Part shown: positions 8,436-32,000 of the stretch, piece after piece | Layout of the letters: each line of letters starts with the position of its first letter | How positions within the stretch are numbered: the stretch's first letter is position 1 | Origin: Nostoc sp. NIES-4103 | Lineage (GTDB): Bacteria > Cyanobacteriota > Cyanobacteriia > Cyanobacteriales > Nostocaceae | Length of the DNA stretch: 32,000 nucleotides | Assembly: GCA_002368335.1 (NCBI GenBank) | Contig: AP018288.1 | Span: 1,187,343-1,219,342 of the forward strand | Reading direction: 5' to 3' | Position numbers and translations under genes: made by a program | The notes under the pieces: generated by a model | Seen by the model: the letters and a program-made list of their open reading frames with translations, nothing else | Database searches by the model: none | What the model was told of the DNA's origin: nothing

Positions 8436-8870
8436 ATGGAACCTGTAACATTAACAGCAGTTGCAACAGCGATCGCTACTATAGTTTTAACTAAGGCTTT
8501 AGAAAAAACAGGTGAAAAGCTTGGGGAAGCTGCGTTAGCTGAAAGCGGTAAATTAATCGCGCAGCTACGTAGTAAAAATAAAGTGCCTTTGTTAGCTGAG
8601 GCGACACCAGAAAATACACAGCAGCCTTTAGATTATGGCAAAGCAGTACTAGAATTGAAAGCTGTAGCAGATGCAGATCCGGAAATTGCTCAATCTGTGA
8701 GGGATGTGGAAGCCGCAGCAAACGCCGATCCTCAAGTAGCGCCAAAAGTCCAAGGTTTAGCAAATGATATCAATTCGCAACCAGCTGGTGTGATCAATTC
8801 TACAAAGTTGGCTGAGTCTATTAAAAGCGTCTTTCAGGGAAATACTTTCATCGGTACTCAGCATTTCTGA
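8436..8870 (+). CDS. 145-aa N-terminal module of the NLR-like protein, detached by an in-frame TGA (hydrophobic N-terminal helix plus helical region)
   Basis: ATG at 8436 gives MEPVTLTAVATAIATIVLTKAL.... The frame is the same as the NB-ARC ORF, and TGA at 8868-8870 is the only stop between them. Confidence 0.6.
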   Translation: MEPVTLTAVATAIATIVLTKALEKTGEKLGEAALAESGKLIAQLRSKNKVPLLAEATPENTQQPLDYGKAVLELKAVADADPEIAQSVRDVEAAANADPQVAPKVQGLANDINSQPAGVINSTKLAESIKSVFQGNTFIGTQHF

Positions 8871-8945
8871 CTGCATTCGCCTGAAGGGGAACGGGTAAAG
8901 TTAAATCCCTCTACTGAAATACCGCAAAATCTCCCCTTAACTGGG

Positions 8946-11492
8946 GTGGTGGAGTTTGTCGGACGTGAAACGGAACTGCAAAACCTGCACGAGATGTTGC
9001 AGCAAAATGATAGCGTAGCAATTACTGCTATAGCCGGAATGGGTGGACTGGGGAAAACAGAACTTGCTCTACAATATGCAAAGGCTCACCGTGAAACTTA
9101 CAACGGTGGAATTTGCTGGTTGTTTCCCAAAGTTGGGGATGTGGGGATTCAAATTGTCCAGTTTGCCAGAACTCACCTTGATTTAAACGTACCAGATAAT
9201 TTAACAGAAGATTCTAGCCAAAAATTACTTGCCCAAGTGCAATATTGCTTTCGCCTTTGGCGTGAGGGTGATGTGCTGCTAGTGTTGGATGATGTTAGCG
9301 ACTATGAGGAAGTAAAGCCTTATTTACTGTCGTTACCTTCTCGGTTTAAAGTGCTGATGACTACACGTCAGTATTTTGGAGGTATAGCACAATTATCTTT
9401 GGATGTGCTGCAACCAGAGGCGGCGCTGGAGTTATTAAAGTCAATTATTGGGGCGGAACGAATTGAACGAGAGAATGACCTAACCCCCCTACCCCCTTCC
9501 CTGGGAGGGAAGGGGGAGATTTGTTCCCCTCCCCTACAAGGGGAGGGGTTAGGGGAGAGGTCACGCGGGGAAATCGTTGCTTTGCAATTGTGTGAGTGGC
9601 TGGGATATTTGCCTTTGGGTTTGGAATTAGTGGGGCGATATCTGGCGCGGAAGCGGGATTTGTCCCTTACAGAAATGTTGCGGCGATTAAATCAAAAGCG
9701 ATTAGATGAGCGTTCCCTTTCTAAGTCTAAGTCAGAAGCAAACATGACAGCACAACGGGGTGTGTTAGCAGCTTTTGAGTTGAGTTGGCAAGAATTAGAG
9801 GATGCTGATAAAGAGTTGGGCTGTTTGCTGAGTTTATTCGCCGCTGCACCTATACCTTGGGATTTGGTAGAACAATGTTTACCAGAGGAAGACGAGGAAG
9901 AAATCGAAGAAATTAGAGATGAAAAGTTGTTGAATTTGCATTTACTCCAGCGTAAGGGTGAGGGAATTTATCAACTGCATCCACTACTGCGCGAGTTTTT
10001 CCAATATAAGCTTACAGGTTTAGAACGAGCAGAGGAATTTAAGCGATCGCTTTGCGAGGTAATGGTAGCTGTTGCCAAGGAGATTCCTGAAGATCCCATC
10101 CTTGAGCAAATCAACGCTGTTTCCCCTGCAATACCTCACATAGCTGAAGTAGCGAATCATCTCATTCAATACCTCAGCGATGATGATTTAATTTGGCCAT
10201 TCATCGGCAACGCTCGGTTTTACAATGGTCAAGGACTATATGACAAAGCAGCACCTTGGTTTGAGCAGTGTCTAGAAGTTACCAAAAAACGCTTGGGACT
10301 TGAGCATCCATTTGTTGCCACTAGCCTCAACAATCTGGGAGTACTTTACTATTCTCAAGGAAAGTACAGCCAAACCGAACCCCTGTACCTCCAAGCTTTG
10401 GAAATGAAACAACGCCTACTGGGAATTGAGCATCCTTTTTTTGCAGAAAGCCTTAACAATCTGGCGTATCTCTATTACTCTCAAGGAAAGTACAGCCAAG
10501 CCGAACCTCTATATCTCAAAGCTTTGGAAATTAACCAACGCTTACTGGGAATTGAACATCCATCTGTTGCACAAATCTTTAACAATTTAGGGAATCTCTA
10601 CTATTTTCAAGGAAAGTACAGCCAAGCCGAACTCATGTACCTCCAAGCCTTGGAAATGAGGCAACGCATACTAGGAATTGAGCATCCTGATTTAGCCACT
10701 AGCCTCAACAATCTGGCCTTACTCTACGATTCCCAAGGAAGATACAGCCAAGCCGAACCCCTGCTTCTGCAAGCGTTAAAAATGAGGCAACGCCTACTGG
10801 GAATTGAGCATCCTGATTTAGCAAATAGTCTGAACAATCTGGGGTTACTCTACAAATCCCAAGGAAAGTATAGCCAAGCCGAACCCCTAATTCTGGAAGC
10901 GTTAAAAATGAGGCAACGCCTACTGGGAATTGAGCATCCTGATGTTGCACTTAGCCTCAACAATCTAGCGGTACTCTACAAATCCCAAGGAAGATACAGC
11001 GAAGCCGAACCCCTATATCGCCAAGCGCTGGAAATGAACCAAAGCCTACTGGGGCTTGAACATCCTGATGTTGCACTTAGCCTCAACAATCTGGCAGGAC
11101 TCTACCATTCCCAAGAAAACTACAGCCAAGCCGAACCCCTCTATCTCCAAGCGCTGGAAATGAGGCAACGTCTACTGGGACAGGAACATCCATCTGTTGC
11201 AGAAAGCCTCAACAACCTGGCAAATCTCTACAATTCCCAAGAACAGTATAGCCAAGCCGAACCGTTGTATCTCAAAGCTTTGAAAATGAGGCAACGCCTA
11301 CTAGGACAAGAACATCCAGATGTCGCACAAAGTCTCAACAGCCTAGCAACACTCTACCAATCTCAAGAAAAATACAGCGAAGCCGAACCCCTCTACATCC
11401 AAGCTTTAGATATTTGTGAGCGACGCTTAGGACTAAATCACCCCAATACTGTTACTGTGCGTGAAAATTTAGCAGATTTGCGCGATGCCTGA
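8946..11492 (+). CDS. STAND NTPase: NB-ARC domain plus about 11 TPR (TPR_10/12, kinesin-light-chain type) repeats; NLR-like
   Basis: P-loop GMGGLGKTELA, Walker B LLVLDDV, RNBS-B-like MTTR, GLPL-like GYLPLGLELVG, then 42-aa repeats (HPxVAxSLNNLAxLYxSQGxYSxAEPLYxQALEMxQRLLG). GTG at 8946 is the only available start. Confidence 0.9.
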   Translation: MVEFVGRETELQNLHEMLQQNDSVAITAIAGMGGLGKTELALQYAKAHRETYNGGICWLFPKVGDVGIQIVQFARTHLDLNVPDNLTEDSSQKLLAQVQYCFRLWREGDVLLVLDDVSDYEEVKPYLLSLPSRFKVLMTTRQYFGGIAQLSLDVLQPEAALELLKSIIGAERIERENDLTPLPPSLGGKGEICSPPLQGEGLGERSRGEIVALQLCEWLGYLPLGLELVGRYLARKRDLSLTEMLRRLNQKRLDERSLSKSKSEANMTAQRGVLAAFELSWQELEDADKELGCLLSLFAAAPIPWDLVEQCLPEEDEEEIEEIRDEKLLNLHLLQRKGEGIYQLHPLLREFFQYKLTGLERAEEFKRSLCEVMVAVAKEIPEDPILEQINAVSPAIPHIAEVANHLIQYLSDDDLIWPFIGNARFYNGQGLYDKAAPWFEQCLEVTKKRLGLEHPFVATSLNNLGVLYYSQGKYSQTEPLYLQALEMKQRLLGIEHPFFAESLNNLAYLYYSQGKYSQAEPLYLKALEINQRLLGIEHPSVAQIFNNLGNLYYFQGKYSQAELMYLQALEMRQRILGIEHPDLATSLNNLALLYDSQGRYSQAEPLLLQALKMRQRLLGIEHPDLANSLNNLGLLYKSQGKYSQAEPLILEALKMRQRLLGIEHPDVALSLNNLAVLYKSQGRYSEAEPLYRQALEMNQSLLGLEHPDVALSLNNLAGLYHSQENYSQAEPLYLQALEMRQRLLGQEHPSVAESLNNLANLYNSQEQYSQAEPLYLKALKMRQRLLGQEHPDVAQSLNSLATLYQSQEKYSEAEPLYIQALDICERRLGLNHPNTVTVRENLADLRDA
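9476..9570. mobile_element. nested-palindrome small dispersed repeat inserted in frame inside the NB-ARC coding sequence
   Basis: Hairpins are ccccttccct-gg-gagggaagggg and cccctcccct-acaa-ggggagggg, flanked by gacctaacccc...ggggttagg..ggtc. It is translated as LTPLPPSLGGKGEICSPPLQGEGLGERS. The boundaries are approximate. Confidence 0.7.
10230..11480 (+). repeat. 126-nt (42-codon) tandem coding repeats encoding the TPR array
   Basis: Long near-identical stretches recur at a 126-nt period, for example aggcaacgcctactgggaattgagcatcctgat at 10786 and 10912. Confidence 0.85.
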
Positions 11493-28726: not shown

Positions 28727-28777
28727 AAAAGGGAAATTACAGTTAGCTGCGGTCAGCAGCCCTGATTTCCCCTTTTT
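28727..28777. terminator. terminator-like compound hairpin in a divergent intergenic region
   Basis: The structure reads aaaagggaaat...gctgc-ggtca-gcagc...atttccccttttt. T/A runs on both sides make it potentially bidirectional. Confidence 0.35.
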
Positions 28778-29076: not shown

Positions 29077-29934
29077 ATGTCCGAGTTATTTTGTGTCTCA
29101 GGGTGCGAGAATCCTCAACGCAGCGGCGATGTAATTTTTATTCATGGTTTGGCAGGTGATGCATGGGGAACTTGGCATTACCAAGACCGACGCGATCGCA
29201 GCGATCGTGATTTTTGGCTGACTTGGCTCCAAAACGACTTAACACACAAAGGAATTGATGTGGGAGTTTGGACTTTTGGGTACGATGCAGCACGTTTTCA
29301 ATTTAGTGGTTCAGCAATGCCCAGGTTTGACCAAGCCAGCAACTTACTAGAATTTTTACAAGTAAGGGAAATTGGTGAGCGGCCAGTAGTATTCGTTACC
29401 CATAGTATGGGTGGGTTGCTAGTGAAAGAAATGCTTCGCACCGCACAAAATTTCCGAATGCAGACTCTGATCGAGGAGACTAAGGGAATTGTTTTTTTAT
29501 CCACGCCACACACAGGTTCTCATTTAGCAAAATTAATTGATCATTTCAGCATCTTGGTGCGACCTACAGTCAACGTTGAAGAATTGAAGGCGCACGTACC
29601 AGCATTACGTAGCCTCAACGAGTGGTACCGGCAGAATGTTCAGAGTTTGGCAATTGATACCAAGGTATTTTATGAAACCCAGCCGACAGCGGGAATTTTG
29701 GTTGTGGATGAGGATAGTGCAAACCCAGGTATTGTAAATGTTAACCCAGTAGCGATCGCCAAAGACCATAATCAAATTGCCAAACCCAGTTCCAAAGAAG
29801 ATTTAGTCTATCTCAGTGTCAAGCAGTTTATTGAAAAACATATAAAACCGCGACCACAACTGCCTTCTAGTGACACAATTCTTTTACAAAGACCCAATTT
29901 TGTGAAATCTGAAAACCCTCATTATCCCCTCTGA
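29077..29934 (+). CDS. alpha/beta-hydrolase, PGAP1/DUF676/SesB-like putative lipase-esterase
   Basis: SGDVIFIHGLAGDAWGTW (oxyanion region), nucleophile elbow FVTHSMGGLLVKEML, acidic VVDEDSA, and a histidine motif AKDHNQIAKP. Confidence 0.8.
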   Translation: MSELFCVSGCENPQRSGDVIFIHGLAGDAWGTWHYQDRRDRSDRDFWLTWLQNDLTHKGIDVGVWTFGYDAARFQFSGSAMPRFDQASNLLEFLQVREIGERPVVFVTHSMGGLLVKEMLRTAQNFRMQTLIEETKGIVFLSTPHTGSHLAKLIDHFSILVRPTVNVEELKAHVPALRSLNEWYRQNVQSLAIDTKVFYETQPTAGILVVDEDSANPGIVNVNPVAIAKDHNQIAKPSSKEDLVYLSVKQFIEKHIKPRPQLPSSDTILLQRPNFVKSENPHYPL

Positions 29935-30035
29935 ATACCGGTGTTAAAGATTCGGAGGGGATAAATACTTATATTGACTTTCTCATTATTAAAATTTGCA
30001 CAGAACCTGTTGATAAACAACAGGTTAACCTTTAC

Positions 30036-30560
30036 TTGATTGCGAATTTTAATGAACAGCGGCTAAGTATAGATGGTGTTACAATTCAGTTCGGGTTAAA
30101 ACGCGGACAACTGAGGCTGCGTTTGCGAAATGGAAATATACCTATTGAATCTATAGATACGTCTCAATTCCTTAATTTTGAGGTTGATTTCAAGGGAGGA
30201 TCGGAGAATAATATATGTTGGGTTTTTAATTTAAAAACTAAAGAATCTCAAGTTTTAAAAGGTTTACTTAAGAAAACTAGGCTAGGAACTGTATCCAAAG
30301 GTATACAGCAACTAAGTCCACAGGATGTAAACATGGAAAATAACGGAGTCTGTTCTGTGGAGGCAAGTTTTGAAATGGTTTCCATTACAGATGTATTTAT
30401 AACTGAGATTGAGGATGAGCAACCCTATTTCACAAAAAAGGAAATTACAGGATTACTTCAAAAGAAAAAAATGAAAACAGTCATAGGAAGAAAAATTTTT
30501 AAAGAACATTTGCAAACACTATTTGAACCTTGCATACTTCAGGCGGATTTTGATGTATGA
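30036..30560 (+). CDS. hypothetical protein, middle gene of the hydrolase cluster
   Basis: 174-aa ORF with a TTG start. The frame is open from 29913 with no ATG or GTG. The stop overlaps the next gene's start (ATGA at 30557-30560). No family recognised. Confidence 0.5.
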   Translation: MIANFNEQRLSIDGVTIQFGLKRGQLRLRLRNGNIPIESIDTSQFLNFEVDFKGGSENNICWVFNLKTKESQVLKGLLKKTRLGTVSKGIQQLSPQDVNMENNGVCSVEASFEMVSITDVFITEIEDEQPYFTKKEITGLLQKKKMKTVIGRKIFKEHLQTLFEPCILQADFDV

Positions 30561-32000
30561 AAAACCAACTATTTTTACCAGATTTATTGCAAGAGTTAGT
30601 CCAAACTCAAACAAACAAATTCTCTGAAATAGTGCAAATTGCTGGTCTGAACCTCACTGAAGATTTTGTAGGCGTTGACCTCAGTGGTGAAGACCTAAGC
30701 GAAGATAATTTGAGCAAAGCAAACTTGAGTTTTGCCGATTTAAGCGAGACTAATCTAAGATGTACTAACCTCAGCGGTGCTAACCTCAGCGGTGCTAACT
30801 TAAGCGGTGCTAACTTGAGAAACGCCAACTTAAGCGGTGCTAACTTAAGCGATGCAAATCTCACTGATGCTAACCTAAGTGGTGTTGATCTTAAAGGTGC
30901 TATCCTCAGTGACGCCAACCTCAACGGTGCTAACCTCAGAAAAGCAGACTTGACTGATGCTAACCTGAAAAATGCAAATCTAACTGATGCTAATCTCAGC
31001 GAGACTAGTTTAAACAAAACTGCTGATCTAGTTAATATAATTACTAATAAGTCTACACATGTTCAGGAATCAATCAAGAGCAAAGAGCCAAAACAAAAGG
31101 CATTTGAACCACTTTTGGAAACTGACGAAAAAATTGCCCAGGCAACTTCAGACTTGGTTGGGCTAGAAAAAATCTTAGAAGATGTTTGTAGAGAAGTTCA
31201 AGACTTACTAGGCTTTGACTTTGTTGGCATATCATTGGTGATGCCAGAGCAAGATACTATTGAATCAGTATATGGTACTGGGATTGCAAGTAGATGGGTT
31301 GATCAAGCCAAGCATTACGTCAAGGCAGACCCAGATTTAAGAGATATCCAGGCACATATCATTAAAACTTGTGATACTGAAATTATTTCTGGTTGGGACA
31401 AGCGATTTGATCGCTGGGTTTATGAAAGGTTTAATCATGACCGATTGACTCGTATTTTTACGCCCATTTTCTTAGTTTATGATGAGCAAGGAAAAGTAGT
31501 AGAAGATTGGTTTCAATACTATGAATGGGATGAAAATTTTGTAGCAGATAAAGGTGAAGGAAACAATCGGATTATCCGGATGAAGACACTACCTACTGCT
31601 TCTTTGCCTGAAGTTATCGGCACATTGGAAGCAGGATATGAAAATCCCAAAAAACCAATTACAGATGAACAAGCAACCTTACTAGCTCAACTGATTGGAC
31701 GGCGGGCATTAGATATTCGTCGTGGTCGGTTACGTTATGTTTTAGAAACGATTGCAGAGAATGCTAAAAATATTTTTCAAGCTGACTTAACTACTTTGCA
31801 TTTTTTATGGGAACCACATCAAGAACGTTACATTTATGAAGTCTTTGCAGGAGACCTCGGTAATGCAACGTTAGATAAATTTTCACCTCGCAAGAATGGA
31901 TTAGGATGGCAAAGTATTTATGAAAGAAAACTCAAATATATTACATATTCATCTCCAATCACTGAAAATTTAGAAATAGATTTAAATCAGGGAGTATTGG
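30557..32000 (+). CDS. pentapeptide-repeat protein with C-terminal GAF-like domain(s); 3' end lies beyond the window
   Basis: I translated this frame by hand and found no stop from ATG 30557 to the window end (481 codons). It has about 23 A(D/N)LxG-type pentapeptides (VDLSGEDLSEDNLSKANLSFADLSETNLRCTNLSGANLSGANLSGANLRNANLSGANLSDANL...). GAF-like starts follow: LEKILEDVCREVQDLLGFDFVGISLV and LETIAENAKNIFQADLTTLHFLW. It is not in the supplied track because it has no stop. Confidence 0.8.
   Translation, partial: MKNQLFLPDLLQELVQTQTNKFSEIVQIAGLNLTEDFVGVDLSGEDLSEDNLSKANLSFADLSETNLRCTNLSGANLSGANLSGANLRNANLSGANLSDANLTDANLSGVDLKGAILSDANLNGANLRKADLTDANLKNANLTDANLSETSLNKTADLVNIITNKSTHVQESIKSKEPKQKAFEPLLETDEKIAQATSDLVGLEKILEDVCREVQDLLGFDFVGISLVMPEQDTIESVYGTGIASRWVDQAKHYVKADPDLRDIQAHIIKTCDTEIISGWDKRFDRWVYERFNHDRLTRIFTPIFLVYDEQGKVVEDWFQYYEWDENFVADKGEGNNRIIRMKTLPTASLPEVIGTLEAGYENPKKPITDEQATLLAQLIGRRALDIRRGRLRYVLETIAENAKNIFQADLTTLHFLWEPHQERYIYEVFAGDLGNATLDKFSPRKNGLGWQSIYERKLKYITYSSPITENLEIDLNQGVL

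Follow-up and report, generated by a model that had tools for sequence, protein, structure and literature searches.

A candidate −1 frameshift junction between predicted hydrolase and adaptor genes in a conserved three-gene unit of Nostocaceae

The window analyzed here, a 32,000-nucleotide (nt) stretch from the cyanobacterium Nostoc sp. NIES-4103 (positions 1187343–1219342 of contig AP018288.1, in an 8.59-Mb genome), ends in three tightly packed genes that raise a simple question: are they independent neighbors, or is the product of the first gene joined to that of the second? The original prediction, made from the window sequence, described a lipase-like hydrolase followed after a 101-nt gap by an open reading frame (ORF2) that has a TTG start and a frame open from 29913, and whose stop codon overlaps, in an ATGA, the start of a pentapeptide-repeat/GAF protein (gene 3). 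The three reading frames, the gap, the open frame and the overlap all lie where that prediction had placed them. The features on which the argument rests are listed below in window positions, which are used throughout; ORF2 is given both as annotated and in the extent argued for here.

29077–29934, + strand: hydrolase gene, 285 amino acids (aa), predicted α/β-hydrolase (SesB/PGAP1/DUF676-like) effector module
29913–29919, + strand: candidate −1 slippery site A_AAC_CCU; frame 0 reads GAA AAC CCT, and the C_CCU tetramer is invariant
29913–30560, + strand: ORF2 reading frame in its true extent, 215 codons, −1 relative to the hydrolase; predicted β-sandwich "pentapeptide-partner" adaptor domain
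29922–29964, + strand: conserved RNA hairpin (5′ arm 29922–29936, loop 29937–29949, 3′ arm 29950–29964)
30036–30560, + strand: ORF2 as annotated, 174 aa, TTG start
30036–30038, + strand: annotated TTG "start", probably an internal hydrophobic codon (residue 42 of the extended frame)
30557–32000, + strand: 5′ part of gene 3; the whole gene, once sequence beyond the window is added, ends at window-equivalent position 33862 and encodes 1101 aa

The triad and the origin of its first two genes

The triad was found in 10 distinct Nostocaceae loci from three genera, in at least two flank contexts, and is carried by 6 of the 389 family genomes searched. Close homologs of ORF2 are confined to the Nostocaceae, and every one of them sits between a hydrolase of 276–287 aa and a pentapeptide-GAF kinase of 949–1119 aa. 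The triad of Nostoc sp. UHCC 0702 is syntenic with that of the window genome. Five Nostoc assemblies carry it in quite different flanks, with a giant phytase-like gene upstream and COP23 and Uma2 downstream, and the remaining loci comprise one JGI contig, one Logan contig and one further genus. The three genes are a co-conserved unit, as had been supposed, and random adjacency fails as an explanation because they are kept together across these distinct loci.

The relationship between the first two genes emerges from a comparison with Scytonema hofmannii PCC 7110, which has two uninterrupted genes encoding a CHAT protease domain followed by an ORF2 domain. The linker in these in-frame fusions reads TILLQRPNSNKTDNSSLVCQNIGDLNSEEN... 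(within the longer stretch ...GKTILLQRPNSNKTDNSSLVCQNIGDLNSEENDSNIKFLLMKI...) and aligns gap-free first to the hydrolase tail, TILLQRPNFVKSENP, in frame 0 and then to SLSPLNTGVKDSEGIN... / SLSPLNTGVKDSEGINTYIDFLIIKI in frame −1. At the DNA level, ctgaaaa-ccctcatta in the window stands opposite ctgataattcctcatta in Scytonema, a single-base difference that falls exactly at AAACCCT (29913–29919). Because the tail aligns with the CHAT-ORF2 linker, it is assigned to the adaptor module; the last ~19 hydrolase codons (TILLQRPNFVKSENPHYPL) are homologous to this linker and, as judged from the alignment, are part of it. By the same comparison, a single ancestral gene gave rise to both the hydrolase gene and ORF2, which a conserved −1 frame change with a hairpin now separates; the hydrolase, which the original prediction had taken to stand alone, is one portion of that gene. 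No in-frame hydrolase-ORF2 fusion was found: among the best 120 of 510 matches to the conceptual 494-aa product, none covers both halves.

ORF2 itself extends well upstream of its annotated start. Over the 123 nt from 29913 to 30035 its frame contains no stop codon or indel in any of the 10 loci, the other two frames contain 2–7 stops, and the stretch is conserved to the same degree as the flanking coding DNA. A phmmer search against 1.84 billion representatives recovered 67 ORF2 relatives, with matches beginning at residues 13–39 of the extended frame, and the family profile matches the window genome from 29949; homology thus reaches at least 87 nt upstream of the TTG. The AlphaFold model of the extended protein (predicted local distance difference test, pLDDT, 75.5; predicted template modeling score, pTM, 0.73) has β-strand 1 at residues 24–32 and β-strand 2 at residues 37–46, spanning the TTG. 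Since homology, the model and the open frame all place the N-terminus upstream, the TTG start given in the original prediction is probably not the true one; the N-terminus is predicted to lie ~100 nt upstream of it, where the hydrolase ends. None of the canonical start codons is conserved there among the 10 loci. The gene start is wrong or inconsistent in every public record of the family, and the present analysis corrects it.

The original prediction had also allowed for a middle ORF devoid of conservation or coding signal, and this does not describe ORF2, the frame of which is open in all loci. The extended ORF2 appears to be translated, because its ratio of nonsynonymous to synonymous substitution rates (dN/dS) is 0.3–0.5 in distant pairs. 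Between the close strains of loci L036, L039 and L040 the ratio is 0.96–1.56, versus 0.45–0.71 for the hydrolase; this could reflect diversifying selection or noise from few substitutions.

The junction between the hydrolase gene and ORF2

The −1 frame opens at the candidate slippery site, where the heptamer A_AAC_CCU is present in 7 of the 10 loci and A_GAC_CCU in the other three, with CCCT in all 10. In Escherichia coli, C_CCU is among six tetramers that shift −1 in the presence of a stimulator, and most X_XXC_CCN motifs shift too; three heptamers fall below the threshold, and these include A_AAC_CCA but not A_AAC_CCU (PMC4066793).

The site is followed by a hairpin of 15 base pairs (−22 kcal/mol; z-score of the region −6.4), the stem of which begins 2 nt past the heptamer, with an 11-bp GC-rich core beginning 6 nt past it. 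The 5′ arm holds a CTG (29931–29933) and the overlapping TGA stop of the hydrolase (29932–29934), and the 3′ arm holds GGAGGGG. Across all loci only two pairs of the stem vary, one going from G·U to A-U and the other, by a compensatory change, from U-A to A-U. It is unchanged at synonymous sites although the synonymous rate (dS) between loci reaches 0.7–0.96, and dS is depressed in the linker. Because of this invariance at synonymous sites despite high dS, the hairpin is judged to be under selection. The in-frame Scytonema genes are unable to form the stem. Metagenome pattern scans for the hairpin gave 0 matches.

The heptamer also appears to covary with the potential for an internal start. 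The four loci without ATG, GTG or TTG at the "LYx" codon all have an intact heptamer, and GTG or ATG occupies that codon in each of the three loci where the heptamer is broken; as the loci are related, this is no more than suggestive.

Several features of a frameshift site are present, namely a −1 frame that is coding from the site onward, single-frame homologs and a downstream structure, and our preferred, if tentative, reading is that programmed −1 frameshifting yields a 494-aa hydrolase-adaptor fusion. The three genes would form one operon, a modular effector-adaptor-kinase unit in which the first two halves differ by one base of frame in this Nostoc lineage. A minority of ribosomes would slip −1 on A_AAC_CCU, or minimally on C_CCU, stimulated by the hairpin 2–6 nt downstream. 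The products would be mostly free 285-aa hydrolase plus some fusion, the predicted trans-frame product spanning the junction ...FVKSENPSLSPLNTGVK....

This arrangement resembles the −1 frameshift cassettes of dnaX and of IS3/IS911 orfAB, which likewise combine an in-phase X_XXY_YYZ, a short spacer, a stable downstream stem-loop and a frame-0 stop a few codons on. Those cassettes make two products from one mRNA, as is proposed for the triad. Unlike them, the triad has a weaker motif (A_AAC_CCU/C_CCU) that is not fully conserved and lacks an upstream Shine-Dalgarno stimulator, and its host gene is a cellular effector-adaptor gene.

Several points weigh against frameshifting. Three of the 10 loci have a broken heptamer (A_GAC_CCU), and by the rules established in E. 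coli, the host here being Nostoc, CCU slips only moderately well in the A site. Any indel in an A/C run will by its nature leave a sequence that looks slippery, which makes the heptamer weaker evidence than it seems. One locus, L038, gained a GTGA stop-start overlap through three adjacent substitutions together with a compensating change in the stem, which favors reinitiation for that lineage at the very least. Because most members of the family are free-standing proteins, the adaptor need not be covalently joined to an effector, and codon-position bias is weak in the 71 nt after the hairpin (13/15/17 changes).

Termination followed by reinitiation, without any fusion, is the close rival, and we regard it as a substantial though lesser possibility. 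Ribosomes would end at the UGA (29932–29934) and restart at the overlapping CUG (29931–29933; GUG in L038), giving a separate 209-aa adaptor. The hairpin would block independent starts, and the adaptor, as well as the kinase coupled to it through the ATGA, would be made only with the hydrolase. An NUGA overlap is found in 10 of 10 loci, and in L038 the stop and start moved together while the compensatory change kept the hairpin. The predicted N-terminus would also give the adaptor the length of free-standing family members, the AAC-to-GAC change would be neutral, and a split NLR-like protein of Moorena has an ATGA junction. However, bacteria initiate only very weakly at CUG, and the one here is not preceded by a Shine-Dalgarno sequence. 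Overlap coupling does not usually need a 15-bp hairpin, which is a hallmark of −1 frameshift sites, and the CUG is constrained anyway by the Leu and stop codons of the hydrolase and by the stem. We favor frameshifting over reinitiation, and then over a plain TTG start.

That the annotation is right, with three independent genes, ORF2 starting from the TTG at 30036 (GTG or ATG in relatives) and the upstream frame a mere relic, is improbable. The codon was chosen by gene callers and is TTG, GTG or ATG in 6 of 10 loci (TTG in the window genome, GTG or ATG elsewhere), but it reads TTA in UHCC 0702, ATC in L038 and ATA in L041 and L118. A start within β-strand 2 would remove strand 1 from the modeled fold, and neither the upstream family homology nor the upstream frame free of stops and indels in every locus fits a relic. 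The weakest alternative is a decaying pseudogene, in which a frameshift mutation inactivated a former hydrolase-adaptor fusion and expression of ORF2 ceased; the one-base break relative to intact homologs and a broken hydrolase at locus L034 would agree with it, but it is very improbable given that the ORF2 frame is intact in all 10 loci, among which dS reaches 0.9 and dN/dS is 0.3–0.5, that a new hairpin evolved and was maintained at the break, and that the kinase start is still coupled to the ORF2 stop.

Other mechanisms at the junction were considered and rejected. Readthrough of the UGA was excluded: frame 0 meets a TAA ten codons later. In a bypass like that of T4 gene 60, the landing CUC at 29982 is present only in the window genome and UHCC 0702, and CTG, CTA, GTG or CCC is found elsewhere. 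In these two genomes only, the last hydrolase codon CUC is followed by UGA, the hairpin and then an in-frame CUC 50 nt on (29929–29984). If the GGAGG of the hairpin served as the Shine-Dalgarno sequence for a start downstream of it, only an ATA at 2-nt spacing or an unconserved ATT at 14-nt spacing would be available. A second hairpin around the TTG (29985–30055), although strong in the window genome, has arms that are not preserved in L036, L038 or L041.

The adaptor family and its partners

In the AlphaFold models the ORF2-family domain is a ~190-aa β-sandwich of 11–12 strands with one C-terminal helix. ORF2 had been described as having no recognizable family, and indeed no Pfam, NCBIfam or PADLOC model matched it. 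Foldseek returned no structural neighbor above a template modeling (TM) score of 0.4, and a search of BFVD gave nothing. A pore-forming-toxin fold was rejected: the best PDB hits belong to the hemolysin/leukocidin family, at TM ≤0.37 and a root-mean-square deviation of at least 8 Å, which we take as generic β-sandwich similarity. From the relatives and the model, the domain represents an unannotated β-sandwich family, and its relatives at 50% identity make up 67 representative clusters.

A scan of species genomes for this family gave 69 loci across filamentous and unicellular cyanobacteria, containing 56 family ORFs. A helix-plus-pentapeptide protein is encoded directly downstream of, or fused to, the family ORF in 44 of the 56. 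Their partners include the following.

30 ORFs: overlap a helix-plus-pentapeptide gene, mostly by 8 nt
5 ORFs: Microcystis, partner with the helix but without repeats
5 ORFs: pentapeptide gene within 300 nt
4 ORFs: natural fusions

One natural fusion of an ORF2-family domain to a pentapeptide protein was modeled at pLDDT 91.4 and pTM 0.88. On the N-terminal side of the domain, CHAT (Scytonema) and HTH (locus L027) modules are found; EAD1 is joined to an ORF2-like domain (hhalign probability 99.1%), and in Moorena the domain is the C-terminus of a split caspase-NB-ARC-TPR protein. The adaptor role that the original prediction had assigned to the middle ORF agrees with this traffic of EAD1, CHAT, HTH and NLR modules and with the recurrent pairing with a pentapeptide protein. 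In the Microcystis loci L095–L101, the downstream gene has the conserved N-terminal helix, with an unrelated ~230-aa region in place of the repeats. The Moorena pair (L052:1731-4729 and L053:1608-4729) consists of a caspase-NB-ARC ORF and a TPR-plus-ORF2-like ORF that overlap by ATGA; the NB-ARC module appears divided between the two, which together resemble a split NLR-like protein with the adaptor domain at its end.

The organization recalls the EAD-coupled and bacterial TRADD-N conflict systems that Kaur, Burroughs, Iyer and Aravind described in multicellular bacteria (PMC7159879, PMC8195603), with which it shares a constant small adaptor, N-terminal modules (caspase/CHAT, α/β-hydrolase, EAD1, HTH) that differ among close relatives, pentapeptide repeats that are C-terminal or adjacent, and a cyanobacterial bias. 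The constant ORF2-like domain is flanked, as there, by variable effector or EAD modules and pentapeptide repeats; the resemblance is one of logic only. In TRADD-N, ~90 aa adopt an RRM-like β-α-β-β-α-β fold that has a conserved small-Ser turn (PMC8195603). Identity of ORF2 with TRADD-N was rejected, as the fold differs and no match to Pfam TRADD_N, PF13820 or 1F3V was obtained. Unlike the TRADD-N systems, the triad has a ~190-aa β-sandwich as its constant domain and a GAF histidine kinase as partner, and its operon has no STAND or MoxR-vWA core.

Sequence past position 32000 revealed the C-terminal output domain of gene 3. The protein comprises, in order, an N-terminal helix, ~24 uninterrupted pentapeptide repeats, GAF-like domains, a DHp-like segment and HATPase_c. 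The pentapeptide and GAF make-up seen earlier was confirmed, the repeats having been put at about 23. A weak GAF-like region lies at residues ~203–376, and GAF domains at ~575–710 and ~728–866. Because the protein ends in HATPase_c (5.5e-16, residues 983–1091; AtoS-like match 869–1093), gene 3 is predicted to encode a soluble sensor histidine kinase, and FFHQLNN is a candidate H-box. No receiver-domain gene was found among the ORFs to ~11 kb downstream or in the 2 kb upstream. The N-terminal helix has the pattern ..F.E..QIAGLNL.EDF.G.DLSG and is found together with the ORF2-like domain; it may be this helix, and not the repeats, that serves as the constant docking element.

By Foldseek, gene 3 has in common with the cyanobacterial pentapeptide proteins HetL, Np275/276, Rfr23/32 and Alr5209 the right-handed quadrilateral β-helix, and it scores partially against NCBIfam HetL/Alr5209-like models. 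Unlike those proteins, it has a specific N-terminal helix and continues into GAF domains and a kinase core. A 136-aa antisense ORF (30607–31017, − strand, LRLAS.. repeats) mirrors the pentapeptide-repeat coding region and is not a gene.

We infer docking of the adaptor domain on the downstream GAF kinase, at the N-terminal helix and pentapeptide β-helix of the latter; the start of the kinase would be coupled to the adaptor stop through the ATGA. Under the frameshifting model, the enzyme and a ligand-sensing kinase would thereby be linked in fixed proportion, and docking of the adaptor on the kinase would bring or regulate the hydrolase.

The hydrolase is predicted to be a PGAP1/DUF676/SesB-like α/β-hydrolase from a profile match together with a GxSxG elbow and a DH motif. 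The Pfam matches, PGAP1 at 24.9 bits (cut-off 24.3) and DUF676 at 21.7 bits (cut-off 20.3), are both barely above cut-off. The motifs THSMGG and DHNQIAKP are present as described earlier; in an alignment of 28 homologs H109, S110, G112 and G113 are invariant and H231, within DHNQIAKP, is nearly so, and a VVDEDS block is conserved, which covers the catalytic His and a candidate acidic residue. PADLOC matched the protein to DUF626_VIII (3.4e-23) and LmuA (6e-9). The suggested kinship with NLR/STAND effector modules holds as well, as the same module, 55–70% identical, forms the N-terminus of NACHT, NB-ARC, AAA_35, TIR and TPR proteins in cyanobacteria. The N-terminal lipase domains (SesB/PGAP1/DUF676) of fungal and bacterial NLR/STAND proteins and the hydrolase-type Lamassu LmuA share the GxSxG elbow and the DH motif; unlike them, the hydrolase has no NTPase or SMC partner, and the adaptor it connects to, across a change of frame, is not an NTPase. 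At L034 (Nostoc sp. GCA_036917615.1, 5098–5953), the hydrolase is disrupted and called as 153 + 126 aa, with ORF2 and the kinase intact.

Possible roles and genomic surroundings

A defence or conflict role for the triad, with the hydrolase perhaps acting as a toxic payload, is plausible. It is suggested by the effector modules carried on the same adaptor, the patchy distribution, the mobility between contexts and the dN/dS above 1 in close strains. The conflict role put forward in the original prediction was not supported by the searches made for it. Within the triad PADLOC matched only the hydrolase, with the obligatory partners of Lamassu or of the DUF626_VIII model absent and no match for ORF2 or the kinase. 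No defence-island context was found for the wider ORF2 family, as the neighbors of 115 genes around it are mostly of housekeeping types.

The triad might instead be a signaling unit of ordinary physiology, in which the kinase has a docking partner and the hydrolase acts on a metabolite or lipid signal and not as a toxic effector, and we regard this as a reasonable possibility short of an even chance. The neighbors of the wider family include response regulators with DUF3685, aminopeptidase P, DUF4332 and ABC transporters, no complete PADLOC system is present at the triad, and GAF histidine kinases are common signaling proteins. Against this stand the NACHT, NB-ARC, TIR and AAA_35 proteins headed by the same hydrolase module, the fusions of the adaptor domain to EAD1, CHAT and a caspase-NB-ARC-TPR protein, the restriction of the triad to few genomes in two different genomic contexts, and the elevated dN/dS in close strains.

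For the operon as a whole we offer, at somewhat less than an even chance, the proposal that a cellular, non-mobile Nostoc operon sets the ratio of free effector to fusion by a −1 frameshift (C_CCU plus hairpin) and that the fusion plugs via its β-sandwich into the pentapeptide N-terminus of a GAF kinase. To our knowledge, apart from dnaX, insertion sequences and phages, confirmed −1 frameshifting is rare among the genes of bacterial chromosomes, and we know of no −1 frameshift described for cyanobacterial signaling or immune-like genes. The same window also contains an in-frame TGA (8868–8870) between a 168-aa ORF and an NB-ARC ORF; folding of 8850–8960 around it gave no significant structure (z = 0.43). 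If the proposal is true, then together with this in-frame-TGA junction it would make recoding a general coupling of effectors to sensors in cyanobacterial immune-like modules. The junction is a compact 60-nt cassette and is directly testable.

The ORF2 family gives a first concrete interaction hypothesis for some orphan cyanobacterial pentapeptide-repeat proteins. The swapping of CHAT, hydrolase, EAD1, HTH and NLR modules onto one adaptor would extend the "effector-associated" architecture of Kaur et al.

The cluster had also been described as visibly more AT-rich than its flanks. Relative to a window GC content of 0.419, this holds for ORF2 (0.341) and gene 3 (0.373) but not for the hydrolase (0.436). 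The orphan terminator-like hairpin noted upstream of the cluster is real (28727–28777; −29.6 kcal/mol, z = −4.1). It is a compound structure flanked by A- and T-runs within a 530-nt divergent intergenic region; it resembles a bidirectional terminator without a gene to terminate and could be the end of a small RNA. Rfam gave no match anywhere in the window. At window-equivalent positions 34902–35552, two genes past the kinase and immediately ahead of psbA, lies a very AT-rich PD-(D/E)xK gene (GC 0.30) that is unrelated to the triad and matches the PADLOC Cas-associated PD_DExK model at 5e-52.

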